Positions 2,130-45,712 of a stretch of 64,000 nucleotides of DNA are shown here, in pieces (positions within the stretch are counted from its first letter, which is position 1; every line of letters begins with the position of its first letter). Position numbers and translations under genes: made by a program. The notes below the pieces were generated by a model that searched no databases, was not told where the DNA came from, and saw nothing but the letters and a program-made list of their open reading frames with translations. Where the stretch lies: positions 640,001-704,000 of the forward strand of contig CAXXRD010000001.1 of assembly GCA_963663895.2 (NCBI GenBank), in the 5' to 3' direction. Source of the stretch: Dehalococcoidia bacterium. GTDB lineage: Bacteria > Chloroflexota > Dehalococcoidia > Bin125.

Positions 2130-2393
2130 ACAGACTCCCATCCGGCGGTGAAGGCAAGCGATCCTAGCATGGCCCTGCGCAATGCGGCGGCGGGGCCGCA
2201 GACGAGCCCACACTTCCCTAAGAATTCCGCACATGCGGGCGACGCCGGCCGAACCGGGCAGCGCGATCGTCGTGATCTCGCTCACCGCCTCGTCCAAGCG
2301 TCCGCCGCCTGCGACGAACTCGCTCTGGTACCGGGACAGACCGCGACCCCTGCTCCGGTCAACGGCAGCCGCAAGCGCCAAGCGGCGCGCCGC

Positions 2394-2864
2394 TCAGAGT
2401 GGGGCCGGCGCCCCTTCGGCCAGCGCCTTCCCCAGGCGATCGAGCTCCTGGCGCAGCCGCCGCTGCATCAAGCGGCGGAGCAGTGGAGCTCCCAGCAGAA
2501 AACTCACGCTGGTCGCGCGACTGTCGGAGCCGGCCTTCATCCGGTTCTCAATGCGGCTGCCGCTCTTGGCCGGTTCGATCGTGACCGTTCTCTGGAAAGG
2601 AAAGGGGCCGCCGATCGACCGGATCGTGAAGCAACGCGGCGCGTCGAAGGCAGTCACTTCGTAGCGGATATCGTGGGTACGGCCGCCGTAGGTGTACTTG
2701 CTCACGAAAGTCGACCCGGCGCCGAATTCGCCCTCGGAGACCCGGCGCGGCTCCGACACGCCAATCACCCAACATGGCATGTTCTCGACCGCGGAACTGA
2801 AAGCGAACACTTGATCCGGCGCCTGCCGCACGACGCTGGATGCCGCTGCTTCAAGCCATCGCAC
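2394..2864 (-). CDS. SRPBCC (polyketide cyclase/dehydrase-like) family protein
   Basis: APDQVFAF..ENMPCW..GAGSTF..YEVTAFDAPR..C-terminal helix LRQELDRLGKALAE. Confidence 0.75.
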   Translation of the reverse strand: MRWLEAAASSVVRQAPDQVFAFSSAVENMPCWVIGVSEPRRVSEGEFGAGSTFVSKYTYGGRTHDIRYEVTAFDAPRCFTIRSIGGPFPFQRTVTIEPAKSGSRIENRMKAGSDSRATSVSFLLGAPLLRRLMQRRLRQELDRLGKALAEGAPAPL

Positions 2865-2917
2865 GCCGCCTACCCTTCCGTACGCGGCACGCTACCATCC
2901 CTGCACGGCAGGGAGCG

Positions 2918-3886
2918 ATGCACGACGCGGACAAACCCGGCTTCCTCTTCTCGGTCGCGCCGGGGCAGCGGCGCACCATGATCGCGCTCGCCCAGGAACT
3001 CGACCGGCGGGGCTTCCCCTTCCTCTACTGTCCGCATGGGGCGGGGGGCGCGATCGAGCCCGGGCAACAGCGCATCGCCCGGCCTTACCGCATTCCAGCT
3101 CCTTACGACGCGCTGGGGCAGGCGTTCGCGCTGATCCAGGCAACGAAGCGCATGACCATCGGCAGCGGCGTCGCCGTCACCTACACGCGCCATCCCACCG
3201 AGATGGCGGCAACGGCCAACCTGATCCACGAACTCGGCAACGGCCGGTTCATTCTGGGCCTCGGCGTGGGGCACGGCCCGATCCTGCAGCAGTTCGGCTA
3301 CGTGCCCGAAGCGCCGATCGCGCATCTGCGCCGCTATGTGGAGGCGCTCCGCGCGGCTGCGAGCGATCGGCCGCTGCCAGCCATCGTCTTTGCGGCGCTG
3401 CGCAAACGCATGACCGCGCTCGCGGGCGAACTCGCGGACGGCGTGCTCTTCGCCAATGCCGCCCGCTCGCACATCCCCGTCTCACTGCGCGAGATCCCCG
3501 CCGCCGGGCGAGCGGCCTTTCTCATCGGGAACTTCGCCCCCTGCTACGTCGCGGAGGATCGAAGCGAGGCGCTGACGGCGGTCCGGCGGGCGCTGACCAA
3601 CTACATGACGCTTCCGAACTACCAGCGCTACTTCATCGAAGCCGGCTATGCGGACGCAGTCGCGCAGGGTCGCGCCGCCATTGAGGCCGACGACCAGCCC
3701 CAACTCGAAGCCTCGATCTCAGAGCGCATGGCGGAGGACATCTGCGTCTTCGGCACCCCCGCCGAAATCAGAGCCCAGGTCGCCGCCTTCCGAGAGGCCG
3801 GCGTGAACCAAGTCGGCCTCTCCACGCTCTTCCACACGCAAGACCAGGCCAAGGCGATCGCGCGCGTCGCCGCCGCCTTCGACTAG
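2918..3886 (+). CDS. LLM class flavin/F420-dependent oxidoreductase (tandem paralog 1)
   Basis: ATKRMTIGSGVA..GRFILGLGVGH..LAGELADG; GGGAG SD before ATG 2918. Confidence 0.88.
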   Translation: MHDADKPGFLFSVAPGQRRTMIALAQELDRRGFPFLYCPHGAGGAIEPGQQRIARPYRIPAPYDALGQAFALIQATKRMTIGSGVAVTYTRHPTEMAATANLIHELGNGRFILGLGVGHGPILQQFGYVPEAPIAHLRRYVEALRAAASDRPLPAIVFAALRKRMTALAGELADGVLFANAARSHIPVSLREIPAAGRAAFLIGNFAPCYVAEDRSEALTAVRRALTNYMTLPNYQRYFIEAGYADAVAQGRAAIEADDQPQLEASISERMAEDICVFGTPAEIRAQVAAFREAGVNQVGLSTLFHTQDQAKAIARVAAAFD

Positions 3887-3966
3887 CAGACGGTTGTCCC
3901 GCCAGGCAGGCGATCGCTAGCCTCGCTCGTGACCGCCCCCATTCGTGAATCGAACTGGAGACCCCG

Positions 3967-4941
3967 ATGGAGTCCAAGCCAGGCTTTCTGTTCTACGCCG
4001 TGCCGGGTCAACGCAAGTCGATGATCGCGGCGGCCGAGGAGCTCGACCGGCGCGGCTTTCCCTTCATCTACTGCAACCACGGATCCGCACGCGTTTTGCC
4101 GGCCGGCCAGGAGGCGCAGCAGTCAGGCGTGGTCCGGACCTACATCGGCACGGCGGTGACGGACGGCCTGAGCCACTGCCTGGCGATCGCGATGCGGACG
4201 AAGCGCATCACCGTCGGCACGGGGATCGAGGTGACGTACACCCGGCACCCGGTCGAAATGCTCGGCGTGGCGAACTACATCAACGAGGTCAGTGGCGGCC
4301 GCTTCCTCCTCGGAATCGGACCCGGCCACAACGAGATCCTCCGGCAATGGAACTACCCCATCGAGAAGCCCTTGGCGCACATGCGCCGCTACACGCAGGA
4401 GCTGCGCGCGGTGGCGACGGGCCAGCCGATCCCGCCGCTGATCTTCTCGGTGCTGCGCAACGGCATGCTGCGCTTAGCCGGCGAACTCGCCGACGGCGCG
4501 ATCTGGGCCAACGCCGTCCTCTCCTACCTGCCAACGGCGCTCAAGGAAGTCCCGGCCGAGAAGCGGGATTCCTTCATCGTGGCAAATCTGGCTCCCTGCT
4601 ACGTCTCGGAAGATCGCGCGGAAGCGTTGGAAGCCGTGCGCGTGGCGCTGACCAACTACCTGACGCTAACGAACTATCAGCGCTACTTCACGGAAGCGGG
4701 CTACGGGAAAGAAGTGGAGCAGGCGAAGGCGGCGATAGCCGCGAACGATCACGCCGGAGTCGCGGCGGCCGTGTCGGAGCGCATGGCGGACGATATCTGC
4801 CTCTACGGCAGCGCAGCGGACGTGCGGGAGAGATTCGAGGCCTTCCAGGCGGCCGGGGTGAACCAGATGTGCGTCTCGACGCTGTTCCACAGCGACGATC
4901 AAGCCGAGGCCATCCTGCGAGTCGCGGACGCGTTCGATTAG
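3967..4941 (+). CDS. LLM class flavin/F420-dependent oxidoreductase (tandem paralog 2)
   Basis: TKRITVGTGI..SGGRFLLGIGPGH..LAGELADG. Confidence 0.88.
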   Translation: MESKPGFLFYAVPGQRKSMIAAAEELDRRGFPFIYCNHGSARVLPAGQEAQQSGVVRTYIGTAVTDGLSHCLAIAMRTKRITVGTGIEVTYTRHPVEMLGVANYINEVSGGRFLLGIGPGHNEILRQWNYPIEKPLAHMRRYTQELRAVATGQPIPPLIFSVLRNGMLRLAGELADGAIWANAVLSYLPTALKEVPAEKRDSFIVANLAPCYVSEDRAEALEAVRVALTNYLTLTNYQRYFTEAGYGKEVEQAKAAIAANDHAGVAAAVSERMADDICLYGSAADVRERFEAFQAAGVNQMCVSTLFHSDDQAEAILRVADAFD

Positions 4942-10274: not shown

Positions 10275-10564
10275 GCTCTTTCGCTTCCTCCTACTTGCTA
10301 GACGACCTGCGTCGCGTCGCTCCACCGGGAACGAAGTCCCGGCCCTAGCTTGTGTGGAGCGTACATTACTCGATACAGCCTTAGATCAAGTGACTCGCAC
10401 CGCACCTCCTTGGCATCTTTCAGAATTATGTCCCTAAGGCGCGCTGCCGCGCCCTGGAAAGGTCGCAGTGTCGCCGATCGAGGCGCGTCAGTCCAGCCCG
10501 CGCACCGCGCGCGGATTTAGTGACACAATGGGCCCAAAGCTGCCTAGCGTGAGAGGAAGGTGCC

Positions 10565-11125
10565 ATGCCCCTGACCCGTGTCCCGCACGAAGCGTTGGCC
10601 GAGGACTATCGCGCCATGGTCGAGGAATGCATCGATCAGGCCGGCGACGCCCGTTTCCTGGAGATCGGCGCCAATGCGCCGCACATGATGCAATTCTACT
10701 TCGGCGAGTTCTACGAGAAGATCTTCTTCGCGGGCGTCGCTCCCGTCCCGATCAAGGAGCTCGCGCGGCTTCGCCTTTCCACCCTGCACGGCTGTGCGTT
10801 GTGAAACAAGGTCAATACCGTCTCGGCGAGACGGCACGGTATCACCGACGCGCAGATCGCGAGCTTGGACGACTTTGAGAACGGGCCCTTCGATGAGCGG
10901 GAGAAGGCTGCCCTGCGACTGGCGACGGTCATGGCATGGACCGCGCCGCGCGGCTACGTGGACGATATCCTGGAAGCGCAGTTGCGCGAGTATTTCTCGG
11001 ACGCCCAGATCGTCGAGCTGGGAATGGTCTGCGCCCAACTGGTCGGGATGGCGAAGCTTCTGTTCGTTTTCGACTGGGCGGATAAGGAAGATTACTGCCC
11101 ACTGGCGCCGCTCCCAGAAGCATAG
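10565..11125 (+). CDS. AhpD/carboxymuconolactone-decarboxylase family protein, probable selenoprotein (CxxU; TGA at 10802-10804)
   Basis: ORFs 10565-10804 and 10865-11125 are in the same frame, separated only by one TGA. Read-through gives KELARLRLSTLHGCAL-U-NKVN...FDEREKAAL...YFSDAQIVELG, a complete 186-aa AhpD-like protein. Confidence 0.85.
10810..10846 (+). promoter_or_regulatory. Putative bacterial SECIS element
   Basis: CCGTCTC-GGC-GAGACGG perfect stem (10818-10834), G-containing loop about 21 nt after the UGA; alternative lower stem ATACCG/CGGTAT. Confidence 0.65.
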
Positions 11126-11222
11126 GCCCCGCGCTGTCGGCATCCACCGCATCAGCGGCGATTCGCTGGCAGGCGGCTGCCTTCCGGCCGACATGATCCG
11201 TCCGTCTATATACTGAGTCCCC

Positions 11223-13010
11223 ATGCCACACGCACCTGCCGACGACACTGCGGGCATCGATCCCGTCACGTTCGAAGTGGTCCGCAACGCCTTCGTCTCG
11301 ATCTGCAACGAGATGGCGCTGGTGGTCGCCAAGACCGCCTACTCCACCCCCGTCAACGAGGGCCGCGACTTCGCCAGCGGCATCTACGATCACGAGGGCA
11401 AGCTGATCTCCCAAGGCGAGTTCGACTTGCCCGCTTTCGTGGGGCTCACGCATCTCACGGTGCCGGAAGTGATCCGAGCGATCGGGCGGGAAAACATGCG
11501 GCTCGACGACATCTACATGATCAACGACCCCTACGTGGCCAGTACGCATTGCAACGACATTCACTTCGTGAAGCCGGTGTTCATCGACGGGAAGCTGGTG
11601 GCGTTCGTCTCGGCCACCGCGCACTGGTCGGACGTGGGAGGCATCGCTCCCGGATCGCTGATCTGCGCGGCGCGGACGCACTTCGAGGAAGGCGTGCGCA
11701 TTCCGGCGGTCACGATTTATGAGCAGGGGGTCCTAAACGAGGACATCCTCTCCCTGCTCCTCTCCAATATGCGCCAGTCCTGGGAGCGTCTGGGCGACTT
11801 CAACGCGCAAGTGGCGGCCGTGCGGGCGGGCGAGGCGCGCTTCCACGCGCTGGTGGACCGGCACGGGTTGGACGTCGTGCGCGGGACGATGGCGGAGGTG
11901 CAGGACTATTCCGAACGGATGGTCCGGGCCGCCTTCGCCAGCCTTCCGGACGGCAGCTATTACGGAGAGGACCGCTGCGATCAGGACATTTTCACCGGAG
12001 AGCCCAAAGCGATGCGGCTCACGCTCACGATCCGCGGCGACCAGGCGGTCTTCGACCTGACCGAGAGCGACGGCCCAGCGGAGTGCAGCATCAACTGCAC
12101 GATCGCGGCGACCACGTCGGCGCTCTTCATCGCCTTGGCGTCCATCCTGCCGCCCATGCCGATCAACAGCGGCGTGATGCGCGCGATCGAGATCAAGGCC
12201 ACGCGCGGATCGCTCGCCTGGGCAGAGCCCCCGTCGGGAATCTCGGGGCTGCCCGCCACCACCATGGACACGGTGACGAGCTGCGTGACGCAGGCGCTCA
12301 GCCAAGCGTTGCCCGAGCGCGGCGTCGGCGCCGCCTACAGCATCCTGAATTGCGTCTTCTCCGGTTTCGACGAACGGCCCGAGTTCCTGTCGCCTTTCAT
12401 CAACTACGTATGGGGCTTTGGCGGCATGGGAGCGACTGCGAGCAAGGATGGGACCGCGGCAGCGGCCGCCCCCTACGGCGGCAGTATTCAGACCATCCCC
12501 TGCGAGCTGCAGGAGCGCCGCTATCCCGTCCTCTGGCGCCGCCATCAGCTCCTCCCCAGCTCGGGTGGACCCGGCGCCACCCGCGGCGGCTTGGCGCTCG
12601 ACGAGCTGGTGGAGTTTCCCTTCCAGTCCGGCGTCGTCTCGTGCATCGGGGCGCGCGAGCGCTTTGGCGCACCCGGCCTCTTTGGCGCGGGCGACGGCGC
12701 GACGGCGGGTTTGATCATCAACCGGGGGACCGAGTCGGAACGCAACCTGGGGGTGATGGCGCTTCACCAACCCGTCAGCGCCAACGAGGTCATGTCGTTG
12801 TGGTCGGGCGGGGGAGGCGGCTACGGCGACCCGCTGGACCGGCCGCTGGAACGGGTCCTGGACGACGTCAAGGACGAGTACATCTCGATCGAGGGCGCAC
12901 GCGCCCAGTACGGCGCGGTCATCCGTGAGGTCGACCGCCGCACACTCGCCTTCGAGATCGATGTGGCAGCGAGCGAGCGGCTGCGGTCCGAGCGACGCGC
13001 CGCCCGTTAG
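11223..13010 (+). CDS. Hydantoinase B/5-oxoprolinase family protein
   Basis: DPVTFEVVRN, NDPY..THCND, HWSDVGG, GGGGGYGDPLDR. Confidence 0.92.
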   Translation: MPHAPADDTAGIDPVTFEVVRNAFVSICNEMALVVAKTAYSTPVNEGRDFASGIYDHEGKLISQGEFDLPAFVGLTHLTVPEVIRAIGRENMRLDDIYMINDPYVASTHCNDIHFVKPVFIDGKLVAFVSATAHWSDVGGIAPGSLICAARTHFEEGVRIPAVTIYEQGVLNEDILSLLLSNMRQSWERLGDFNAQVAAVRAGEARFHALVDRHGLDVVRGTMAEVQDYSERMVRAAFASLPDGSYYGEDRCDQDIFTGEPKAMRLTLTIRGDQAVFDLTESDGPAECSINCTIAATTSALFIALASILPPMPINSGVMRAIEIKATRGSLAWAEPPSGISGLPATTMDTVTSCVTQALSQALPERGVGAAYSILNCVFSGFDERPEFLSPFINYVWGFGGMGATASKDGTAAAAAPYGGSIQTIPCELQERRYPVLWRRHQLLPSSGGPGATRGGLALDELVEFPFQSGVVSCIGARERFGAPGLFGAGDGATAGLIINRGTESERNLGVMALHQPVSANEVMSLWSGGGGGYGDPLDRPLERVLDDVKDEYISIEGARAQYGAVIREVDRRTLAFEIDVAASERLRSERRAAR

Positions 13011-29990: not shown

Positions 29991-31415
29991 CTAAAGCGCC
30001 ATCTCCGGTACCTGGGCGGGTACGTTCAAGGGACAGCCCGTGGCGGCGATGACCTCTCCGGCATCGATACCGGGCGCCAACTCCCGCAGGAGCAGGCCGC
30101 CGGGCGTCACATCGATCACCGCTAGGTTGGTGACGACAGTGTCCACGCAGCGGCGCGCCGTAATGGGCAGCTCGCAAGCGGAGACCAAACGCGGGCGGCC
30201 GCTTCTGGTGGTGTGCTCCATGATCACGATCAACTCGGAGCCGCCGGCGATGAGGTCCATCGCCCCGCCCATCGCCGGCGCGGTCTTGCCCGGCCGGTAC
30301 CAGTTAGCGAGGTCTCCGGCCTCCGACACCTCGTAGCCGCCCAAAACGACGGCATCGAGGTGGCCGCCGCGCGCCATCGCGAAGGAGCTGACGCTGTCAA
30401 AGATGCTGCTGCCCGGGACAAGCTCTAAGGGCAAGCTGCCTGCATCGAAAAGGTGCGGCTGCCAGCGATCCCGATCCGTAAGGCCCTGGTATCCAAGAAT
30501 GCCGTTTTCGCCCTGCAACATGACCGGCGCCTTGAGCTCATCGAGCCAGCGCGCCACAAGCGTCGGCAACCCCACGCCGAGATTCACATAGTCGTAATCG
30601 GCGACCATCCGCGCAACGCGCAGCCCCATCTGCTCCCTCGTGAGGCCTCGCGCCTCACCTTCCATGGCCGGCGCCGCGGTCGGGTCCTTGCGATAGCCCC
30701 ACGCCTCACGGAGCAACTCGTCCCGTGCGATCCCGTGACGCACAACGCTGTCGACGAAGATGCCGGGCAGGTGCACTCCTTCCGGCGCGATCGCGCCCGC
30801 GGGCACGATGGTATCCGCCTCCACGACAACCGTTCGTGCGGCCGTGGCCATGGCCGTCTGGAAATTGCGCGTCGTGCCCTGGAAGCGGCAGTTCCCGGAT
30901 TCATCGGCGACCTGGACGCGCAGCAGGGCATAGTCGGCGGGAAGCGCACGTTCGAACAGATGGGGGCGGCCGTCAAAGTCACGCTGCTCCTTGCCTCTGG
31001 CAACCTCGGTGCCGACTCCCGTCGGCGTGAAGAACCCGGCCACGCCCGCGCCGGCTGCACGGATTCGCTCGACGAAGGTCCCCTGGGGCACGATCTCGAG
31101 CTCGACCGCGCCGCGCAGGATCGCCTCTTCAAACGGCGTGCGCGCGTGCGGCTGGCCGGCGCCGGAGCCGATGAACTTCTTGACCAAGCCACGTTCGGCA
31201 AGCTGCTGGGGCGTGAAAGCCCCTTTGCTCACGGAGTTGCAGATGATGGTGAGGTCGCCCGCTCCGTGATCAGCCAGCGCGCCCAGCAGCGTGCCGGGCC
31301 AAGAAACCGTGGTCGAGAAGCCGCCGACCATGATCGCCATGCCCGGCCGCACGCCGGCGATCGCCTCCGCCGCGGAGGCCACGACCTTGGTCGCATCAGC
31401 CTTCCCGGCAGCCAA
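29991..31415 (-). CDS. Family I CoA-transferase, fused alpha+beta subunits (3-oxoacid CoA-transferase-like)
   Basis: PQGTFVERIRAAGAG, YVNLGVGLPT, GENG, MGGAMDL. Confidence 0.9.
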   Translation of the reverse strand: MAAGKADATKVVASAAEAIAGVRPGMAIMVGGFSTTVSWPGTLLGALADHGAGDLTIICNSVSKGAFTPQQLAERGLVKKFIGSGAGQPHARTPFEEAILRGAVELEIVPQGTFVERIRAAGAGVAGFFTPTGVGTEVARGKEQRDFDGRPHLFERALPADYALLRVQVADESGNCRFQGTTRNFQTAMATAARTVVVEADTIVPAGAIAPEGVHLPGIFVDSVVRHGIARDELLREAWGYRKDPTAAPAMEGEARGLTREQMGLRVARMVADYDYVNLGVGLPTLVARWLDELKAPVMLQGENGILGYQGLTDRDRWQPHLFDAGSLPLELVPGSSIFDSVSSFAMARGGHLDAVVLGGYEVSEAGDLANWYRPGKTAPAMGGAMDLIAGGSELIVIMEHTTRSGRPRLVSACELPITARRCVDTVVTNLAVIDVTPGGLLLRELAPGIDAGEVIAATGCPLNVPAQVPEMAL

Positions 31416-32813
31416 CTAGAGTCCCATCGTCGGCACATCGGCGGGCACGGTGAGCGGGCAACCCGTCGCCGCCACGACCTGCTCCACGCTGACTCCCGGC
31501 GCCAGCTCGCGCAGATGCAGCCCGTCCGCCTCGACGGCGATCAGGGCGAGGTTCGTGACGATGGTGTTGACACAGCCGCGTCCCGTCACCGGGAGGGTGC
31601 ACTCCTCGACGATGCGCGGGACGCCCTTGCGGGTCGTGTGCTCCAGGACCGCGATCAGCTCCGCATCGCCGGCGATCAGGTCCATCGCCCCGCCGATCAG
31701 CGGCCCGCCGACGCCGGGCCGGACCCAGTTGGCGATGTCGCCGCCACCGGACACCTCGTAGGCGCCCAGCACGACCGCATCCAAGTGGCCGCCGCGCGCC
31801 ATGGTGAAGGCCCCCGCGCTATCGATCACGGCGCTTCCCGGCAAGAGCTCGGCCGGCTGGCTGCCGGCGTCGAAGACGTTGGGGTCCCAGCGCGCCTTAT
31901 CGGCCAGGGCCCGGTAGCCCATCACTCCGTTTTCCCCGTGCAAGACCACCTCCGCCCCGAGCCGCTCGAGCCAGCGCCCGGCGAGCACCGGGAGACCGAT
32001 ACCGAGGTTCACGTAGTCGTAGCCCGCGATCAGCTTGGCAGTGCGCAATCCCATCTGATCGCGGTCCAGCCCCACGCCGGAGCCGGTCTTGCCCGCGACG
32101 TCCCGGGGCTGGATGCGCGCCACCTCAAGACGCTCCTCGTAAGGTACTTCCACCGCCACGACGCGATCGATGAAGATGCCGGGCAGATGCACGTCCTCCG
32201 GGTCGATCGCGCCCACCGGAACGATCTTTTCGGCCTCCACCACCACGATCTCCGCCGCCGTCGCCATCGCGGTCTGAAAATTGCGCGTCGTTCCCTCGAA
32301 ACGGCAGTTCCCGGCTTCGTCGACTTCGCTGGCCCAGAGGAGCGCGAAGTCGGCCCGCAGCGCCGGCTCCAACAGATACGTGCGGCCGTCGAACTCGCGG
32401 ACTTCGCGGTTCTCCTCAAGAGCGGTGCCCGCGCCCGTGAGGGTGTAAAACGCCGCCAGCCCCGCGCCGGCCGCCCGCATACGCTCCGCCAGCGTGCCCT
32501 GCGGTACTATCTCGACCTCGATCGCACCCGCAAGGATCTTGTCCTCGAACACCGTGGGCCGCGCGACCTGGGTGGCAGCCGAGCCGATGAATTTCTTGAC
32601 CAAGCCGGCTTCGGCCAGCATCTGCGGACCCAGCCGGCCGTAGCCGATCGTGCAGCCGATAACGGTCAGGTCGCCCGCCCCGTGCTCCACCATGGCGGAG
32701 AGCAGACTGATCGGCAGCGACATCGTCGGCGCGAAGCCGCCGAACATCACGTGCATCCCCGGCTGAAGCTCCGCGATCGCTTCGAGGGCGCTGGGGACAA
32801 CCTTGTTTCGCAT
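31416..32813 (-). CDS. Family I CoA-transferase, fused alpha+beta subunits (tandem paralog)
   Basis: MRNKVV.., PQGTLAERMRAAGAG, GENG, GGAMDL. Confidence 0.9.
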   Translation of the reverse strand: MRNKVVPSALEAIAELQPGMHVMFGGFAPTMSLPISLLSAMVEHGAGDLTVIGCTIGYGRLGPQMLAEAGLVKKFIGSAATQVARPTVFEDKILAGAIEVEIVPQGTLAERMRAAGAGLAAFYTLTGAGTALEENREVREFDGRTYLLEPALRADFALLWASEVDEAGNCRFEGTTRNFQTAMATAAEIVVVEAEKIVPVGAIDPEDVHLPGIFIDRVVAVEVPYEERLEVARIQPRDVAGKTGSGVGLDRDQMGLRTAKLIAGYDYVNLGIGLPVLAGRWLERLGAEVVLHGENGVMGYRALADKARWDPNVFDAGSQPAELLPGSAVIDSAGAFTMARGGHLDAVVLGAYEVSGGGDIANWVRPGVGGPLIGGAMDLIAGDAELIAVLEHTTRKGVPRIVEECTLPVTGRGCVNTIVTNLALIAVEADGLHLRELAPGVSVEQVVAATGCPLTVPADVPTMGL

Positions 32814-32954
32814 ACACACCCCATCGGACCGTGGCGGCAGGGCCACGAACCGTGAAAATATCGCACGCGCGGCGGCAGGCGGCCAGATCCCGGCGCCGGC
32901 TCTTGGTGCCGGTCCGAGGGTCACCAGCGCATTCGCGACGGATTAGTATGGCGT

Positions 32955-35949: not shown

Positions 35950-36103
35950 GACGGTCTCCTCTTGCGGCGCTTCGCCCGGCGCCGCGGCCCGAGTCTAGCC
36001 GCTCCGGCCGCCCCATCTCCGGCGGCCGGGAGTCTGCAGAGGCCCGGCGTTGGAATGTGACGGCGTAGGCAGGGCGGGTTGCAGCGGGTTACCATCGAGT
36101 CGC

Positions 36104-38650
36104 ATGGCAAACCCCGCTGCGTCAACTGCCAACCCAAGAAGCCGGGTTACGCCGCTCGCCCTGGACTCAGGCGAATTCGTTAGCGACATCCCAGTCCGGA
36201 TGAGCTACGAGATCATCAAGCTCTTCTCGGAAGGGCTCTACCAGAGTCCACACAAGGCAGTAGAGGAACTCGTCGCGAACGCCTACGACGCAGGTGCCGA
36301 GAACGCCTGGGTATTCACCGCGAGAGATGAGTACCCCGAGGACTCGCTCTGGGTGATTGACGATGGTTCCGGCATGGACAGCCACGGATTCGAAGTCTTA
36401 TGGCACGTCGCAGACCCACACAAGTCCATCGATTCAGGAACTGGCGTCGCGGGTCGGGTCGCGATCGGGCAGTTCGGGATTGGCAAACTCGCAGCGTACG
36501 TCCTCGCAGAGCGACTAACGCACCTCTCGAAGCGCGACGACCGCTACCTCCTCACCTCAATGGACTTCACGCGTGTCACCGAGCACCATCAGTGGGAGAA
36601 CCCAGAGGACATCAAGATCCAACTGAGAAAACTCACCGAAGAAGAGGCGATGGGGTTGCTCCGCGAGATCGCTGACCGAGACGACGAGCAAGTCTGCTGG
36701 TCCCGGCTCTTCGGTCCCACCGCCTGCACGTCCTGGACCGCGGCCGCGCTAAGCGAGTTCAAGCCCCTAATGGACGACTTCCAGGTGGGCACCCTCAGCT
36801 GGGTCCTCCGGACCGGTCTGCCCATCCTGTCGAACTTTCACATCGTCCTGAATGGCTCGATTCTCGAAAGTCCGAAGGTCGAGCTCGATCCGCTCGATAT
36901 ATTCCCATTTGGCGGTGACGACGAGGAGGTCGAGAAGCTCAAGAAGGAGGGAACCTCCATCAAGGCGACGGCAGAAGGAGTGATCATCGAAGGAATTCCG
37001 GGCGTCATAAACGGATCCGCCACTGTTTACGCAAGCGCGCTCGAAGGGGGGAAGTCAGACCGTTACTCGCGTAGCTACGGAATCTTCGTGAAAGTCAAGC
37101 AGCGAATCGTCAATCTAGAGAATGAGACCTTCGGTCTGCCGGCGCAGAACCACGCTGCCTGGAACCGAAGCGTTATCCGCGTCGAGGCGGACGGCCTTAG
37201 CGAGTTCCTTCAGTCTTCCCGCGAGGGTGTGAGAGAGACGAGAGAAACGCGTGCACTGCAGCAGTACCTCCACGAGAAGTTCCTGAGATGTAGACGCACC
37301 TACGAGGCATACCTCGACCAGCAGTTGGTCGGCGACGAAATTCACCGATTGGTGGCTGAGGGTCCGTCTCCATTCATGACTGATCCGCTGATTGACGCAG
37401 TGCGTCGTGGCATAGCCAATCCAGGGTCCCAGATGTTCTATTTGCGACGTCCGGCCGAAGGGGAAGCCACCGACCTTGAAGAATGGGTTGCGGAGTTCGA
37501 GACCGCCGCGGCAGACGAACCGATCAGCGATATCGCTCTGACAGAGGCCGGCCGTTACGCACCGGTTGCATCGTACGAGCCGACAACGCGAATCCTCCAC
37601 GTGAATCGAGACCATCCGTTCGTCGCCCATCTGGTTCAGCAAAGTCGAGGGGCGACGCCGTGGAAGCTGTTCGCAACCTCGGAGCTTCTCCTAGAAGCGA
37701 TCGTCCGTGCGATTGGGGTCCCCAATCAGGAAATAGAGCAGTTGCTCCGTTACCGTGATCGGATTCTGAGAATCCTCCTGAAGGATAAGCCGGCGGTTAT
37801 CGGCGATGTACTCGGTCTCCTCGCTGTGGCGGGCACTGATAAGACTGCTATGGAGCGGGCAACCGGAGCTGCGTTCGAGACACTCGGCTTCGACTATGAG
37901 AAGCGGGGCGGGAGCGGCGGAGGAACCGACGGTGTGCTCGAAGCCAAGCTCGGCGTACTGCCGGGGTCCAACAAGCGAACGAGCTTCAAGCTGGTCTTCG
38001 ACTCAAAGACGAGCAGCGGAGCGGTTCCGAACGAGAGGGTACGGTTCGCCGCCCTTCATCGATTCCAGAACGCTGAGAAGGCTGACTTCGCATTCACCGT
38101 CGCCGATAGGTTCCAAGGAGAAGATAACATTCAATCGGCACTGAACACCGAGGCCGAGAACGAAAAGGTGACAGTTCTCACAACCTCCGATTTGGAGCGC
38201 TTGCTCCGGCTACACGCGTCCTTCGGCATCCCACTGTCAACGATGCGCGAGCTCTTTGCAGGGCCGTACAGGGGCTCCGCGCCGCGCGGTGACGAAGATC
38301 CGAAGGGACACTTCAGTCGGCAGGACGTGCTCCAGTGGCTTGACTGGCTCAAGTCTGAACTCGAAAGCACTGAGAACCGAATTCCGGTGCGCCAGCTTCT
38401 TGAGAGGCTCGATGCTCAGAAAGTGGATCCCTATGATCCGCCACGGATCTCCCGAGTCCGTCTCCTTGACTCAGAGTTCCTAAACTTCAACCCGGATCGG
38501 CTTGAAGCAGCCCTAGAAGGCATCCAAGCTGTGATAGGCGGAAATTACCTTCTGGTTGAAGATGACAGGGTTTACCTCTATCAGACTGTGGACGAGATTC
38601 TGAACAGCTACGACAAGGCTGTTGAGTCAGAGTTGCAGAGTCGCCCGTGA
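36104..38650 (+). CDS. MORC/HSP90-like GHKL ATPase fused to C-terminal PD-(D/E)xK restriction-endonuclease-like domain
   Basis: EELVANAYDA, DDGSGMD, GQFGIGK; S5-like ADGL..SSRE; LHVNRDHPF; C-terminal E..FETLGF..GGTDG..FDSK. Confidence 0.8.
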   Translation: MANPAASTANPRSRVTPLALDSGEFVSDIPVRMSYEIIKLFSEGLYQSPHKAVEELVANAYDAGAENAWVFTARDEYPEDSLWVIDDGSGMDSHGFEVLWHVADPHKSIDSGTGVAGRVAIGQFGIGKLAAYVLAERLTHLSKRDDRYLLTSMDFTRVTEHHQWENPEDIKIQLRKLTEEEAMGLLREIADRDDEQVCWSRLFGPTACTSWTAAALSEFKPLMDDFQVGTLSWVLRTGLPILSNFHIVLNGSILESPKVELDPLDIFPFGGDDEEVEKLKKEGTSIKATAEGVIIEGIPGVINGSATVYASALEGGKSDRYSRSYGIFVKVKQRIVNLENETFGLPAQNHAAWNRSVIRVEADGLSEFLQSSREGVRETRETRALQQYLHEKFLRCRRTYEAYLDQQLVGDEIHRLVAEGPSPFMTDPLIDAVRRGIANPGSQMFYLRRPAEGEATDLEEWVAEFETAAADEPISDIALTEAGRYAPVASYEPTTRILHVNRDHPFVAHLVQQSRGATPWKLFATSELLLEAIVRAIGVPNQEIEQLLRYRDRILRILLKDKPAVIGDVLGLLAVAGTDKTAMERATGAAFETLGFDYEKRGGSGGGTDGVLEAKLGVLPGSNKRTSFKLVFDSKTSSGAVPNERVRFAALHRFQNAEKADFAFTVADRFQGEDNIQSALNTEAENEKVTVLTTSDLERLLRLHASFGIPLSTMRELFAGPYRGSAPRGDEDPKGHFSRQDVLQWLDWLKSELESTENRIPVRQLLERLDAQKVDPYDPPRISRVRLLDSEFLNFNPDRLEAALEGIQAVIGGNYLLVEDDRVYLYQTVDEILNSYDKAVESELQSRP

Positions 38651-39810
38651 AGCCCGTCCACCCATTTCCTGCTCGTATGGCCCCCGATGTTGCTCTCGCA
38701 GCCTTGAATAACCTCCTGCCCGGAGCATCTGTACTAGATCCGCTTGCCGGGTCCGGTACTGTGCTCCGCGCCGCGAGCGACCGAGGTCTGGAGGCGCTTG
38801 GTGCCGACCTCGATCCGTTGGCAGTGCTAATGAGCCGTGTCTGGACTACGCCGCTCGATCCGAACGCACTCGTGGAAGCGGCTGAAAGCGCAGTTGTTCA
38901 CGCGCAACGCTTGAAAGAGCCCGAACTGTCGTGGATCGACACTGATCCCATGACTATCGCGTTTATTGAGTACTGGTTTGCTGAGCGCCAGCGAGCCGAG
39001 CTCCGTCGCCTCGCGCGGGTGCTTGCCTGCGCCGAGGCCGGACCAACAACTGATGCACTGATGTTGGCTCTGAGCAAAATCATCGTCACGAAGGACCGCG
39101 GTGCGAGCCTCGCGCGAGATGTCTCCCACAGTCGGCCTCATCGAGTAGCGCTGAGCAACGACTACCCAACCTACGAAGGTTTCTTGCGCGCCACTCGACA
39201 GATAGCAGCCGCGCTTGCTGCGGAGCCTCCAACCGGGAACGTCGATATTCGACTAGGCGACGCTCGATCGCTCAGTTGGATAGATGACGATTCTATCGAT
39301 GTGGTCGTCACATCCCCTCCATATCTCAACGCGATTGACTACATACGGGGCCATCGACTGGCGCTCGTGTGGCTCGGATTCTCAGTAGCTGCTTTACGGG
39401 AGATCAGAAGCGCCAGCATCGGTGCTGAGCGAGCCGAACGCGAACGCCGCGACCGCACGCTTTCGATGCTAACCGCAGAGCTTCCGGACCTTGCGAGCCT
39501 ACCCAAGAGGACTCAGCGGATCATGCTCCGCTACCGAAATGACCTCGAAGTGACGATGTCGGAGTTGGCGCGTGTGCTGCGTAGCAGCGGGCGCGCAGTG
39601 ATCGTCGTAGGAAACTCGACTCTCAAAGGTGTCTTCGTCGATAACGCTCAGGCTGTGGCTCTTGCCGCCGCAGAGTCAGGTCTCAGGCTCATCGCCCGTA
39701 AGACTCGTGAATTGCCAGCGTCGCACAGATACTTGCCACCCCCCGCAGCTACGGGAGCGCTGAGCAAGCGCATGCGAGAAGAGGTGATCCTGACCTTCCA
39801 ACATGCTTGA
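38647..39810 (+). CDS. DNA amino-methyltransferase (probable N4-cytosine; motif I before motif IV)
   Basis: HPFPARM, VLDPLAGSGT (SAM-binding), GDAR, VTSPPY (catalytic); GTGA overlap with upstream gene. Confidence 0.88.
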   Translation: MKPVHPFPARMAPDVALAALNNLLPGASVLDPLAGSGTVLRAASDRGLEALGADLDPLAVLMSRVWTTPLDPNALVEAAESAVVHAQRLKEPELSWIDTDPMTIAFIEYWFAERQRAELRRLARVLACAEAGPTTDALMLALSKIIVTKDRGASLARDVSHSRPHRVALSNDYPTYEGFLRATRQIAAALAAEPPTGNVDIRLGDARSLSWIDDDSIDVVVTSPPYLNAIDYIRGHRLALVWLGFSVAALREIRSASIGAERAERERRDRTLSMLTAELPDLASLPKRTQRIMLRYRNDLEVTMSELARVLRSSGRAVIVVGNSTLKGVFVDNAQAVALAAAESGLRLIARKTRELPASHRYLPPPAATGALSKRMREEVILTFQHA

Positions 39811-40039
39811 TCCGTGGCCTATGCACCGAGGGATAGCGTGCAACTCGCACAGGTGGACCACTAGCTCTGGAAAGGAACGTGCCGCGAGTGCGTCGCTCGG
39901 CGAATCAGACTGCGTCGCACCGAGTCTGGACTGACCTTAAGTCACACTGCTCCGAACAGGAGACCTGTTCACTCTAGAACGCGAGTCGGACGTGAAAAGG
40001 GACGGCGCATCCCATTTCGCACGAGCACGTTAGACGCCC

Positions 40040-41309: not shown

Positions 41310-43892
41310 TCATACACGCATCCCGGCGGATCCGCTCTCGACGTTCTCCGTGTACCGGCAAGGGGGGTCGGACCAGTACTCCGTGCATCCTCGAAAGGAG
41401 CCAGTCTTGCCATTCCTCAAGAGGAGGACGCCCATGCCGCACGAGGGACAGGCAGGCGGCGGACGATCGCACGTCGGGTTCGTACACGTGGATAGCCCCT
41501 TCGCGACCACCCCATAGCCAGCTTCGCAGTTGGGACAGCAGGGCGCGAGGTGCTCACAGCGCGGATAGTTCGAGCAGCGCAAGTTCTTGCGGCTCTGCGA
41601 GGGAAGCAAGCGACCGTTGGTACAGCGCGGGCACTCCCGAGCGATCTCGTCGCCGATCCGCCGCAGATCGTCGCCGGACTCCCGGATCAGCTCCACGACA
41701 AACGGCGATGGCCGCACCGGGTCCGCGACGAGATAGGCACCGATCCGGGCGCGCGTCATCGCGACATAGAAGAGACGGCGCTCCTCCGCGAACGGAAACG
41801 CTTTCCCAGAGACGGGAGGGAGCACGAGGTCCAAGAGTGGGTCATCCTCGATCCGAGAGGGGAACCCTCGCCGGGCATCGTCGAGGTCGAGCACGACGAC
41901 GTAGTCCGCTTCCCGGCCCTTCGCTTGATGAACGGTGCTGAACTCTACCCGCAACGATCGGCTCCACGAGGACTCCCGGAGCGCGGCTTGGCTATCGCGA
42001 TAGCGTCCCAGCACCAGCACCGAGTGAGGCTCGTCTCCCGTAATCTCCTCGATCTCCTGCAGCGCGCTCCGCAGCCCCCCGGCGGGATCAGGGTCGAAAA
42101 CGAGGGTGATTCCCTGATCCTCGATATCGCGCGCCGCGCGCAGCGGCCGTCGCGTCTGCTCCGGGTTGCGCTGCACGAACGCGGTTGAGGGACCGAGGAT
42201 GCCGTCCGCGAAGCGGAAGGTCTGGCTCAGCGTCCGCTCCCGCGTGCGCCCGAGGTAGGTAGAGCAGTTTCGTACAAGCCCGACATCGCTCCCAGCGAAG
42301 CGGTAGATCGACTGCCAGTCGTCGCCGACGAGGAAGTAGGCCACGTCTTGGGGCCCGCGAGCAAGGGCCTGCAGCAGCGCCATCCGCCCCTTGGAGATGT
42401 CCTGAAACTCGTCGACCAGCACGTACCGGTACGGCGTTTGCCACTTGCCTTCGCGAATGTGAAGTGCGGCGCGATTGATCAGATCATGAAAATCCAACGC
42501 CTCCTCGTCCGCCTCCCCCTCGTCCGCGAGCAAGCGATCGTAACGCGCCCGTACCTGCTCGAAGAGGACGAGGAAGGTCTCGTTACGCAAGCGGTCGCCG
42601 TGCGCACGAGCGCGGGCGCGCAACTCTTCGGGCGTCAGGCCGCTGCTCTTGGCGTGATCTAGAAAGGTCGCCACTAGCATGGCCAGCCAGGAGATCAGCC
42701 GCCGCGCCAGCGCCCGAATCAAGGAGAGCCGCTTTTCGTGTGAGATGGGCTCGAACCCGGCTCCCGCCTCCTCAAGCTGCGCGCGCAGCCCGGGGAGCAG
42801 AACGCCTCGCCGGTGCTGCCAGCTATAGGTCTCGATCAGCTTCGAGCCGTTTCGCGCATGGATGCCTCGCTTCCACTCGACGCCCTCGGCGTACCTCTCC
42901 CAACCCGGCGGCGGGCGGCCCTGCTCGTTCAGCGCGAAATGCTCAATGTAGATGCCGTGGTCGGGGAGGAAGAAGTCCGGCTGATACTGCCTGTGCTGCC
43001 GCGTCGCAGTCGGCGCCTCGTACGGGGCTTCATACTCAAACCTGACGCCGTGCTCCGTCAGATAGTTCGCGATCCGTAGCTCCTCAAAGCTCTTGACCAG
43101 ATCTCCGCTCAGCGTCCGCAGCTCGACGCTGCGGATGTATTCGTCGTACTCGGCGGGCGTCTTGAAATCGAAGGCCGAGCGGTAGGAGGCGCTGTGATCA
43201 ACGATGAAGCTCTTCACAGCGTCCGATTGCCGGGGGTCCTCCAGAAGCTCGTTGAGAATCTCGTCAAGGACGCGGACAAGCTCGGCCCTATCCTCGGCGA
43301 GCTTCGACACGGTCGGCGCGGCCTTGGAAACATCCGCGATGACGCGCCGGCCGAAGGCATGAAAGGTGGAGACATCCGCCGCGAGGCCGCCCGGAAGCCG
43401 CTCGCGGATCTCCCCGGCTGCTTTGCGGTTGAACGCCAGCACGAGGATCTCGCCCGGCGCGGCGTCCAAGTTACGAACGAGGTGGGCCACCTTGCCGGTG
43501 GTGACCGTGGTCTTGCCCGTGCCCGCGCCCGCCAGCACCAGGGTCACGTCCCCGTCGCTGGCGATGGCCTCGGCTTGCTCGTTCGTGGGAAGGCACCGGA
43601 GCGCCGTGAGTGCGGCGATCCGGACGGCGGCGCGCTCGCCCAGTCCCCCGATCGTATGCGCCGTCCCGCCGGTGACGCCGATCGTCAACCGGCTTCGGAG
43701 CCAGGAGCGGTGGACTGTGATCGCGCCGACCGCATCAAGGGGGATCTCCGCCAGCGTGCCGCCGTCGCGCCCCTCAATGCGCAGCGTCTCCGCCGCCAGC
43801 GCTATACGCACGGGACCCCGCGTAAAGAAGCGATGGTGCCAAGGGCTCTGGGCAACGACCTGCCCGGCCGGCCGCGCGGCGATTCCCGTCAT
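41310..43892 (-). CDS. helD: UvrD-family DNA helicase IV-like protein with inserted nuclease-like domain and C-terminal C4 zinc ribbons
   Basis: AGAGTGKT, VDEFQD, VGDDWQSIYRFAG, STVHQAKGRE, EERRLFYVAMTRA; multiple C-terminal CxxC. Confidence 0.8.
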   Translation of the reverse strand: MTGIAARPAGQVVAQSPWHHRFFTRGPVRIALAAETLRIEGRDGGTLAEIPLDAVGAITVHRSWLRSRLTIGVTGGTAHTIGGLGERAAVRIAALTALRCLPTNEQAEAIASDGDVTLVLAGAGTGKTTVTTGKVAHLVRNLDAAPGEILVLAFNRKAAGEIRERLPGGLAADVSTFHAFGRRVIADVSKAAPTVSKLAEDRAELVRVLDEILNELLEDPRQSDAVKSFIVDHSASYRSAFDFKTPAEYDEYIRSVELRTLSGDLVKSFEELRIANYLTEHGVRFEYEAPYEAPTATRQHRQYQPDFFLPDHGIYIEHFALNEQGRPPPGWERYAEGVEWKRGIHARNGSKLIETYSWQHRRGVLLPGLRAQLEEAGAGFEPISHEKRLSLIRALARRLISWLAMLVATFLDHAKSSGLTPEELRARARAHGDRLRNETFLVLFEQVRARYDRLLADEGEADEEALDFHDLINRAALHIREGKWQTPYRYVLVDEFQDISKGRMALLQALARGPQDVAYFLVGDDWQSIYRFAGSDVGLVRNCSTYLGRTRERTLSQTFRFADGILGPSTAFVQRNPEQTRRPLRAARDIEDQGITLVFDPDPAGGLRSALQEIEEITGDEPHSVLVLGRYRDSQAALRESSWSRSLRVEFSTVHQAKGREADYVVVLDLDDARRGFPSRIEDDPLLDLVLPPVSGKAFPFAEERRLFYVAMTRARIGAYLVADPVRPSPFVVELIRESGDDLRRIGDEIARECPRCTNGRLLPSQSRKNLRCSNYPRCEHLAPCCPNCEAGYGVVAKGLSTCTNPTCDRPPPACPSCGMGVLLLRNGKTGSFRGCTEYWSDPPCRYTENVESGSAGMRV

Positions 43893-44299: not shown

Positions 44300-45712
44300 C
44301 TAATCGAAGGCCATCGGCGGCGGGTCGTCGGGGATGGCGATCGGGCAGCCCGTGGCCGCCGCGACCTCGGCGGGGGAGACGCCGGATGCGATCTCGCGCA
44401 AGACGAGACCGTCCGCCGTCACGCCGATCAGGGCGAGATTGGTGACGATGGTGGAGACGCAGCGGCGGCCCGTGAGCGGCAGGGAACACTCCTCCACGAT
44501 GCGCGGCCGGCCATCGCGGGTGGTGTGCTCGAGCAGGGCGATCACCTCGCCGCCGCCCGCCAGCAGGTCCATGGCGCCGCCAATGCGGCCCGCGCCCACG
44601 CCCGGCCGCGACCAGTTGGCCAGGTCACCGTTCCGGGAGATCTCGTAAGCCCCCAGGACCACGGCGTCCAGGTGGCCGCCGCGGGCCATGGCGAAAGCGG
44701 CGACGCTATCGAAGAGAGCAGCCCCCGGCAGGGGAGCGATGGGAAGGCTGCTGGCGTCGAAGTAGCTGGGGTTCCAGCCCTCGACGTCCTCCAGGCCGCG
44801 GAAACCGAGGATGCCGTTCTGGGCGTGCAGGGCGGCCTGCGCGCCGATCTCCTGCAGATGCCGCCCGACCAGCGTGGGCGCGCCCACGCCGAGGTTGACG
44901 TAGCGGTAGTCCGCGACCATGCGGGCGACGCGCAGCGCCATGAGATCGCGCGGGATGCCGCGCACCACGGCGCCGCGGCCCGCGTCCTTCAAAGGGTCGC
45001 GGCCGCGCGCCAGCTCTTCCGCGACGATCTCCGAACGGGGGATCTCCGCCCGGACCACGGCGTCGACGAAGATGCCGGGCAGGTGCACCTCCTCCGGATC
45101 CAGCTCGCCGGCCGCGACGAGGCGCTCCGCCTGCACGATCACGGTGGCGGCGGCGCTCGCCATGGCGGGCTGGAAGTTGCGCGTGGTGCCGTCGAAGCGG
45201 CAGTTGCCGGCCGCGTCCGCCACGTCGGCCCGCAGCAGGGCCGCGTCCGCGGGCAGCGCCCGCTCGAACAGATGGGGGCGGCCGTCGAACTCCCGCACCT
45301 CCTTGTCATCGGATTGAATCACCGTCCCCACGCCGGTGGGCGTGTAGAAGCCCGCGATGCCGGCCCCGGCGGCGCGGATACGCTCGACCAAGGTGCCCTG
45401 GGGCACGATCTCGTAGGCCACTTCGCCCGCTAGGATCTGCTGCTCCATGGCCGTGGAGATGCCGGTGTGCCCGCCGAAGGAGCCGATGAAGCGGGTCACC
45501 AGCCCGCGCTCCGCCAGCACCTGCGGCGAGTAGGGGCCGTAGCCCACGGCGTTGGCGATGATGGTGAGGCCGCCGGCGCCGTGCTCGGCCAGGGCGCGCA
45601 GCAGCGTGCTGGGCCAGGCGGCCATGGGCGCGAAGCCCCCGACCATGACGGCGGCGCCCGGCTGCACGGCGGCCACCGCCTCGCGCGCGCTCTCGACAAC
45701 CTTGCTCTTCAC
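44300..45712 (-). CDS. Family I CoA-transferase fold, fused alpha+beta, with AQNG in place of catalytic GENG
   Basis: Full-length homolog of the 29991 and 31416 paralogs; GTG start at 45712. Confidence 0.85.
   Translation of the reverse strand: MKSKVVESAREAVAAVQPGAAVMVGGFAPMAAWPSTLLRALAEHGAGGLTIIANAVGYGPYSPQVLAERGLVTRFIGSFGGHTGISTAMEQQILAGEVAYEIVPQGTLVERIRAAGAGIAGFYTPTGVGTVIQSDDKEVREFDGRPHLFERALPADAALLRADVADAAGNCRFDGTTRNFQPAMASAAATVIVQAERLVAAGELDPEEVHLPGIFVDAVVRAEIPRSEIVAEELARGRDPLKDAGRGAVVRGIPRDLMALRVARMVADYRYVNLGVGAPTLVGRHLQEIGAQAALHAQNGILGFRGLEDVEGWNPSYFDASSLPIAPLPGAALFDSVAAFAMARGGHLDAVVLGAYEISRNGDLANWSRPGVGAGRIGGAMDLLAGGGEVIALLEHTTRDGRPRIVEECSLPLTGRRCVSTIVTNLALIGVTADGLVLREIASGVSPAEVAAATGCPIAIPDDPPPMAFD

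Follow-up and report, generated by a model that had tools for sequence, protein, structure and literature searches.

A GHKL ATPase-nuclease fusion paired with an amino-methyltransferase in a Dehalococcoidia genome: a candidate mobile restriction-modification system

The locus and its two genes

The subject of this study is a pair of adjacent genes, here R and M, found in a 64,000-nucleotide stretch of the genome of a Dehalococcoidia bacterium (Chloroflexota; contig CAXXRD010000001.1, positions 640,001 to 704,000), hereafter the window. R encodes a fusion of a GHKL-type ATPase with a predicted nuclease, M encodes a predicted DNA methyltransferase, and an earlier note proposed that the two form a horizontally acquired, ATP-dependent restriction system of non-standard architecture. 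The pair is a real, widespread and apparently uncharacterised variant of a predicted kind of system. Its features, in window positions, are as follows (aa, amino acids; SAM, S-adenosylmethionine).

36050..40030, no strand: low-GC insert with both genes (58-60% GC versus about 65-72% in the flanks; ends approximate)
36104-38650, +: gene 1 (R), open reading frame (ORF) call, 848 aa, ATG start
36104..38650, +: fusion order in R, GHKL-ATPase / S5 / HtpG-C-like / FokI-like nuclease / winged helix
36200..36868, +: GHKL ATPase domain, about residues 33-255 (E55, N59, D86, G88, G122/G125/G127, T212)
37004..37333, +: S5-like transducer domain, about residues 301-410 (G326...R334, S-x-R373-E374)
37499..37777, +: middle alpha/beta domain (N501-x-x-H504-P505), weakly like the HtpG C-terminus or a minimal metalloprotease
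37793..38368, +: predicted PD-(D/E)xK nuclease domain, about residues 564-755 (catalytic E584, D609, D633-x-K635)
38378..38635, +: C-terminal winged-helix-like domain, about residues 759-844 (several winged-helix proteins at Z 5.2-6.1)
38647-39810, +: gene 2 (M), ORF call, 387 aa, GTG start
38737..38760, +: motif I of M, SAM-binding, DPLAGSGT (D31, G35 and G37 invariant, 68/68)
39091..39141, +: candidate target-recognition loop, K149...SHSRPH (kept in M1; unrelated motif in M2)
39313..39324, +: catalytic motif IV of M, SPPY (invariant, 68/68)

The two reading frames overlap as GTGA, and the start codon of R is backed by an 80%-identical relative that aligns from residue 1. As had been proposed, the coupled genes are richer in A/T at third codon positions than their surroundings (GC at third positions 0.69 in R and 0.62 in M, versus 0.82-0.96 in nine neighbouring genes), and the seven lowest-GC 1-kb segments of the 64 kb all fall within the R/M region. 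The neighbours are indeed unrelated metabolic genes, for an acetamidase on the left and an N-formylglutamate amidohydrolase on the right, no tRNA was found in the window, and an Rfam scan of 30-46 kb gave no match. Among the repeats listed, no convincing pair marks the ends of the insert, no sigma-70 consensus promoter was found at the locus, and the two terminator-like matches are at chance level. The term 'defence island', applied previously, goes too far for what is a lone two-gene insert here, although relatives often reside in such islands.

The R protein

The sole Pfam match on R is HATPase_c_3 (residues 48-169, E value 5.6e-16), and the matches to PADLOC and NCBIfam models likewise cover the ATPase part only, far under family level. 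GHKL motifs I-III are all present, as the earlier note had read them: E55/N59 (ExxxN), D86-x-G88-x-G90 (DxGxG) and G122/G125/G127 (GxxGxG), as in a Bergerat fold. In a set of 224 fetched homologues (760-950 aa), 223 have E55, N59 and D86, and the ATPase-domain residues overall are kept in 222-223. The unusual SWT has also held up, W211-T212 being invariant in a separate alignment of 72 proteins (72/72), and we infer that it represents GHKL motif IV.

Full-length R was modelled with AlphaFold2 from 106 homologues (predicted local distance difference test, pLDDT, 82.6; predicted template modelling score, pTM, 0.52). The ATPase domain gives Z 12-15 to SMCHD1, Hsp90 and GyrB/ParE (structural search, VIA). 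MORC2 provides the top Foldseek matches and is also best in the wide structural search (Z 15.5, residues 34-411, root-mean-square deviation (rmsd) 7.6, 258 aligned), followed by SMCHD1 (15.0), MORC3 (14.2), and GRP94 and HtpG (13.7-13.8); with scores this close, MORC and Hsp90 are nearly tied as the nearest likeness. When PDB sequences were searched with R, Hsp90 alone was matched, at E values of at least 0.07. The matches to MORC2, MORC3, GRP94 and MutL reach residues ~400-411 and thus take in the S5-like region, as suggested before. Within it R373 is kept in 223/224 homologues and is a candidate arginine finger, in a role that we take to resemble that of the Hsp90 catalytic loop. Conservation in R is highest in the ATPase and S5 modules.

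The middle domain is less easily placed. The HSP90-like segment reported there (VNRDHPF) does contain a conserved N501-x-x-H504-P505, presumably in the place that an NxxHP motif has in Hsp90, but the likeness to HtpG itself is weak: full-length Escherichia coli HtpG (1-624) aligns to residues 23-558 of the model at Z 13.7 with an rmsd of 21, and the other matches are all weak (2ioq in Foldseek, E value 0.2; 2ejq, Z 6.5). This domain is a candidate dimerisation element.

The C-terminus was modelled separately (residues 465-848, pLDDT 90.7, pTM 0.82), and the model has a restriction-nuclease fold, with HindIII as the top match (VIA; Z 14.2, rmsd 3.5, 167 aligned), followed by FokI (Z 14.1, rmsd 2.6, 148 aligned), Nt.BspD6I (Z 13.9, rmsd 2.8, 164 aligned) and R.BspD6I2 (Z 13.3), and with Foldseek E values of 3e-5 to 9e-4. 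Mrr-type AspBHI and MspJI (about 7) and the Shedu protein SduA (5.4) score far lower, so that the nuclease announced in the earlier note stands, with E584, D609 and D633-x-K635 in place, while its Mrr-like label gives way to a fold closer to FokI, HindIII and BspD6I. The catalytic residues are kept in nearly all of the 224 homologues (E584 in 218, D/E609 in 222, D/E633 in 221, with D in 168 and E in 53, and K635 in 219). Pfam matches on 72 C-terminal halves are weak (Mrr_cat in 12/72, FokI_cleav_dom in 4/72), Atlas features agree with the nuclease call (Mrr_cat, AlwI and FokI clusters), and a profile of R aligns FokI 375-451 weakly (E value 0.43); arenavirus nucleoprotein matches in the same profile search were taken as chance. 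Judging by the model, the C-terminus is a PD-(D/E)xK nuclease, with core fold and catalytic D...(D/E)xK present, that is predicted to cut. With ATPase and nuclease residues near-invariant, the family as a whole retains the two active sites. Beyond the nuclease lies a winged helix, absent from the earlier note, with middling matches that cover residues 295-384 of the C-terminal model (759-848 of R); it is a candidate DNA-binding element in this model. Two Bacillales plasmid proteins of ~685 aa (our loci L086, 3693-5756, and L087, 3693-5744) have a nuclease region in common with R (31-37% over ~100 aa), no matching ATPase, and no methylase annotated nearby.

The M protein

M matches Pfam N6_N4_Mtase and PADLOC MTase_II (E value 9e-29), as do all 68 aligned family members in the case of the MTase_II models (68/68), and its motif I (31-38) precedes SPPY (223-226), which is the alpha order. 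The second gene had been described as an amino-methyltransferase, and this is borne out by the SPPY, present in 68/68. M is probably an alpha-class N4-cytosine (m4C) enzyme, a call that is based on SPPY and on a 24.5%-identical relative found beside a MvaI/BcnI-family restriction endonuclease; an SPPY motif has been described in an m4C enzyme as well (PMC5867850). Lying between motifs I and IV, the K149...SHSRPH loop is a candidate for target recognition. A reading of M as a tRNA methylase (two JGI labels, UPF0020 matches) was rejected in view of the long Type II methyltransferase matches and the context. Seventeen M homologues are longer, and P0387 (811 aa, a single partial European Nucleotide Archive sequence) is the only R-M fusion among them, joining the C-terminal half of R in frame to M, possibly as an indel artefact at the overlapping junction; the extension of P0003 is a short methyltransferase-like fragment, not a full fusion.

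Pairing and distribution

Homologues of R number 875 among 8000 candidates scored, and a separate count gives 332 clusters at 50% identity with E values of at most 1e-30; the closest relatives are at 71-88%. A scan of GTDB genomes was followed up for the best 80 of 105 confirmed relatives, of which 77 were assessable, three loci ending at contig edges. An M-family methylase is adjacent to R in 71 of the 77, downstream in 55 and upstream in 16, the upstream partners being the M2 subfamily, 20-26% identical and with a different candidate target loop. The other six are two DPANN archaea with a small convergent methylase and four loci without a methylase, so that a methylase is present in 73/77. 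The DPANN methylases have 235-238 aa and HLPY for SPPY (L057, 10481-11188, minus strand; L080, 10463-11179, minus strand), and the R nucleases at these two loci have E for D at 609. The 71 paired loci include some with a broken M (L004, L053, L058, L076, L078), where some of the frameshifts may be sequencing errors; the genes that appear broken in Spiroplasma (L054) are an artefact of the genetic code and are intact under table 4.

The co-conservation of the two genes is matched by their phylogeny. Distances between R proteins correlate with distances between M proteins (Spearman 0.76, n=63; 0.88, n=35; 0.78, n=21), a value reached in 0/999 permutations, although kinship alone gives such a correlation. 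In trees built quickly with IQ-TREE and FastTree, however, sub-clades of mixed phyla appear for R and again for M, indicating that the two genes move together. For seven close protein matches, the longest contig has an identical length for R and for M, consistent with pairing in the nearest relatives. The host range is patchy and takes in three archaeal groups and over a dozen bacterial phyla. Of the 71 loci that have sufficient flanking sequence (a set without L008 and L056), 66 are lower in GC than their flanks. This foreign composition and the patchy range over many phyla support the pair as mobile and horizontally spread, as the earlier note had proposed for the window. One further case is presented by L064 and L067, with identical R and M in metagenome-assembled genomes of Planctomycetales and Fastidiosipila, which may be due to recent transfer or to a binning error. 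No match to M was found in the phage collection, which gave one weak, ATPase-only match to R, and no plasmid record had at least 80% coverage of R.

Three different methylases, in two gene orders, occupy the methylase slot, and the M family is also found beside other systems, one being, for the distant relative mentioned above, the MvaI/BcnI-family endonuclease and another a GHKL-histidine-kinase operon, suggesting that it is the mark, and not a particular protein, that matters. In the latter case (L081, NZ_CP049245, 2046-8185) an operon of GHKL-histidine-kinase and receiver-like genes has an M-family methylase on either side, and a nuclease-fused R is absent; operons of this type are covered by Bellieny-Rabelo 2021 (PMC8011034). 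Two M-family methylases are present at two loci, L056 and L081.

Neighbours of the relatives, in a survey of 36 selected proteins that is not a systematic count, include Type I and ISP restriction-modification (R-M) genes, a Type III-like methylase, AAA_21 ATPases and a reverse transcriptase. Genes for AAA_21-type ATPases lie just downstream of the pair in L024, L026, L031 and L036, in L024 in the usual place of M. A Z1-domain superfamily 2 (SF2) helicase adjoins the pair in 4/80 loci (L011, 11727-14047; L063, 11908-14186; L066, 6008-7942; L071, 6022-7908) and is absent from the window; a 153-aa gene of unknown function follows the helicase in both L011 and L063, possibly as part of an enlarged form of the system. 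The idea that a third gene is required was rejected, as in an all-versus-all clustering of 3613 ORFs only R and M were widely common, the next clusters being shadow frames.

Relation to known systems

The closest precedent is the work of Iyer, Abhiman, and Aravind (2008; PMC2292703), who described MORC and paraMORC R-M operons, including a helicase-free minority, proposed a looping model, and predicted an R-M role for (para)MORCs, with paraMORC3 carrying a fused nuclease of restriction endonuclease fold. The N-terminal GHKL and S5 domains of R, its methylase neighbour and its patchy, mobile range are all as in these operons, its C-terminal restriction-fold nuclease with E-D-ExK motifs (E584, D609, (D/E)633-x-K635) is as in paraMORC3, and the Z1 helicases at the 4/80 loci match the motif DThhQXuRhFG given there. 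The differences are that about 70% of MORC operons have a helicase (PMC2292703), whereas the R/M loci are mostly helicase-free, and that the nuclease of R is FokI-like, apparently not of the Shedu type, and comes with an added winged helix and an alpha SPPY methylase as a partner. The strict MORC S5 motif GhXhhpXXRhl is found in 0/72 proteins (all 72 have the G, the R and the flanking hydrophobics, 24 fit at position 5 and none at position 6). The family lists of 2008 may already include R. In terms of architecture, the novelty that had been claimed is thus reduced, operons of GHKL-nucleases with methylases having been predicted in 2008, but PADLOC, NCBIfam and Pfam hold no model specific to the R/M family, and no study of it was found in the literature searched, which took in few subscription journals. 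REBASE may hold putative entries.

Another example of a GHKL clamp fused to a PD-(D/E)xK nuclease is VcSduA (GHKL-Shedu type I-D, or paraMORC3), in which both GHKL and nuclease residues are needed for defence (Adams et al., 2025; PMC12137116). This is a single-gene, methylase-free system with a DUF4263 nuclease, while R appears to have another nuclease subfamily, with no Pfam match to DUF4263/SduA_C in the window protein, and a conserved methylase partner. Among Type II enzymes, five GHKL-bearing restriction endonuclease subfamilies are known, one with a PD-(D/E)xK C-terminus (R.VeiORF1182P), and R.HgiDII, of subtype P, has an N-terminal GHKL domain (Orlowski and Bujnicki, 2008; PMC2441816). 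R is like HgiDII/BbrUII and VeiORF1182P in its N-terminal GHKL domain and cognate methylase, and like the last also in its PD-(D/E)xK C-terminus, and its separate, linked R and M genes (73/77 loci) are as in Type II systems. However, NF050001 (BbrUII/HgiDII) gives R 42.1 bits against a cut-off of 550, over residues 44-164 only, and matches 0/72 C-terminal halves; M.HgiDII and M.BbrUII are m5C (5-methylcytosine) enzymes, and M is probably an m4C enzyme; and the C-terminal sequences seen in the supplement of PMC2441816 look unlike R, by eye and without alignment. FokI, HindIII and Nt.BspD6I/R.BspD6I have the fold and the E/D/(D/E)xK layout of R (Z 13-14) and no ATPase, R having a GHKL clamp where the recognition domain of a FokI-type enzyme sits.

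Tiamat (bioRxiv 10.64898/2026.09.30.754977) also joins a GHL ATPase to a C-terminal PD-(D/E)xK nuclease, and a metalloprotease-like fold without activity, reported for it, is weakly suggested in R. Tiamat is without an S5 fold and has tetratricopeptide-like (TPR-like) repeats and DUF3883/NOV_C, with methylases co-occurring only with helicases. R has an S5 domain, no Pfam match to the DUF3684 core that replaces it in Tiamat or to the DUF3883 nuclease, and an ATPase-only match to PADLOC TmtA (E value 0.001). Type III and Type ISP systems resemble R/M as two-gene operons of an ATPase-nuclease subunit and a single amino-methylase, but they are driven by an SF2 helicase and the ATPase of R is GHKL; Type III enzymes are without GHKL motifs, and their Mod is an adenine methylase (PMC3064402). 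Overall, the R family is not MORC in the strict sense, nor is it BbrUII/HgiDII, Tiamat, or Type III.

Proposed function and alternatives

The explanation we favour, with a probability of about one half, is that R and M form a mobile two-gene R-M system with an ATP-gated clamp nuclease. M would methylate a short site in host DNA, probably at N4 of cytosine, and R would be a homodimeric clamp of the GHL type, in which the N-terminal gate would shut around DNA on ATP binding, with the dimer kept together by the HtpG-C-like domain; closure would then join or license the two FokI-like catalytic domains, which would cut DNA with unmethylated sites. The clamp would probably loop or slide, either from site to cut or from one site to another, and R would most likely read the site itself, by means of its nuclease fold, its winged helix or the two together, with M as a separate enzyme. 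What the computations show is how the domains are arranged, that the catalytic motifs are intact, that the two genes are conserved and inherited together, and that their composition is foreign. The dimer and the clamp are suggested by the general behaviour of GHL proteins, the ATP gating by VcSduA and MutL, and the self/non-self logic and the role in defence by R-M systems. In favour of such a function are the modelled nuclease fold (Z about 14 to three restriction enzymes), the two active sites retained in the family, the methylase beside R in 73/77 loci, the congruent trees, the exchange of methylases in the slot, the defence genes near relatives, the prediction of Iyer et al. (2008) and the example of VcSduA. 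Two results that could have counted against the earlier note came out in its favour, the restriction-nuclease fold of the C-terminus and the co-conservation of the two genes, and its proposal is supported in part; a simple self/non-self model is complicated by intact R genes that have no partner methylase.

These and several further observations weigh against the simple reading. An autonomous, toxic restriction enzyme should rarely outlive the loss of its methylase. R is intact with no intact M adjacent in L004, L008, L013 and L024. In L004 a DDE transposase splits M (10415-12656), and in the other three no M is present within 8 kb of R. Orphan R genes occur in a syntenic Chloroflexota clade at these positions:

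L008, 7983-10487: orphan R
L013, 7950-10451: orphan R
L016, 7941-10442: orphan R, with one stop, at codon 90

Within this clade the ratio of nonsynonymous to synonymous substitution (dN/dS) is 0.15-0.19 at dS 0.2-0.6, inside the span of 0.05-0.26 for paired systems, a pattern of purifying selection on the orphan genes; the ratio is higher for L004 versus L005 (0.32). An unlinked methylase may be present elsewhere in these genomes; L008 also has a second, very divergent M-R pair (713-4584, minus strand). A distant full-length R on a Salarchaeum plasmid (L084, NZ_CP085325, 6001-8646, E value 4.5e-100) has no adjacent alpha methylase. The asymmetry expected of a lethal enzyme is weak, since about six loci present the reverse case, a broken R with an intact M (L019, L031, L044, L061, L073, L075). 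No consistent candidate site emerged from palindrome depletion within the R and M genes of 34, 14 and 11 loci, assessed against synonymous-codon shuffles; the depletion seen was for the most part of the generic TpA type, along with scattered 6-mers and, in group 2, GATC. Finally, R groups 1 and 3, which both go with the M1 target loop, are no closer to each other in any domain than are groups with different methylases (0.26 versus 0.27 for the nuclease, 0.15 versus 0.18 for the winged helix), so that recognition may rely on a few universal residues of R, or on M, or R may not be sequence-specific. A predicted complex of R 250-848 with M scored 0.00, which is evidence neither way.

A bolder variant, possible but rather unlikely, is that the pair represents an ATP-dependent restriction class outside Types I-IV, with a MORC/Hsp90-like clamp in place of a helicase motor. 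The clamp would be loaded at an unmethylated site, possibly by M, and the FokI-like domains would not cut until distant sites had been connected by ATP-driven looping or sliding. If true, this would provide a minimal prokaryotic model of a MORC protein reading a DNA methylation mark.

It is unlikely that M doubles as the specificity subunit, following Type III or Type I logic, for an R with no reader of its own, M loading R at an unmethylated, possibly asymmetric site and the GHKL clamp replacing the SF2 helicase between two sites. The absence of any R domain that co-varies with the target loop of M is as expected from such an arrangement, as are the tolerated loss of M (L004, L024), the translational coupling and tight co-phylogeny, the two loci with two M-family methylases, and a catalytic domain in R that resembles Type IIS cleavage domains, the FokI-type cleavage domain being non-specific. 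The P0387 fusion points the same way, but it is single, partial and possibly an artefact. The partner methylases, moreover, have been swapped among three families, M1 serves the unrelated GHKL-kinase operon, and purifying selection in the orphan clade would be unexpected for an R rendered useless.

That same selection, and the distant Salarchaeum homologue, would be easier to understand if R were a sequence-independent or modification-sensing nuclease of the VcSduA/Shedu kind, triggered by DNA ends or by another feature of phage DNA, with M dampening autoimmunity or travelling along and not strictly needed. VcSduA has a like order of GHKL and PD-(D/E)xK domains and acts alone. We consider this still less likely, given the methylase next door in 73/77 loci with congruent trees, the low place of SduA in the fold search (Z 5.4 versus 14), and the absence of SduA_C among the 25 of 43 Pfam families listed for the 72 C-terminal halves.

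Quite improbable is an ordinary Type IIP enzyme, whose HindIII-like domain would recognise and cut a palindrome without ATP, the GHKL domain only regulating or speeding the reaction, as may hold for HgiDII/BbrUII. HindIII is indeed the top fold match, over 167 residues, a single methylase suits a palindrome, and R.HgiDII sets an example of subtype P with an N-terminal GHKL domain, yet the ATPase and S5 domains are the most conserved in R, implying an essential function, and loss of M is tolerated. A repair or epigenetic module of the MutL/MutH kind, nicking DNA by methylation state, has the MutL logic of GHKL, S5 and nuclease in its favour, and such recruitment was allowed by Iyer et al. (2008), but it is most improbable in view of the patchy distribution, the low GC in 66/71 loci, the frequent disruption by transposases, and the defence neighbours.

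Implications

According to a proposal made in 2008 and held since, the MORC-like ATPases of prokaryotes loop DNA and in this way couple a methylation mark to a cut, and in the papers searched we found no biochemical test of this proposal for a methylase-paired GHKL nuclease. The R/M pair makes the idea directly testable, with the clamp and the nuclease in one chain, a single partner gene, and cultured strains that include Streptomyces spp., Actinacidiphila alni and Winogradskyella ursingii. As PADLOC 2.0 has no full-length R model, PADLOC scans may report these loci as an orphan methylase only.

Other genes in the window

A UvrD protein, like DNA helicase IV, is encoded 1.5 kb from the pair (41310-43892, minus strand; NF008276, 327 bits, below the cut-off). 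It has zinc ribbons at its C-terminus and, internally, a weak endonuclease-like stretch (residues 257-324), and no ORF of the related loci clustered with it. By eye, three fused ORFs that resemble CoA-transferases and one another were noted at 29991-32924 and about 44300-45700, two of the three lying in tandem.

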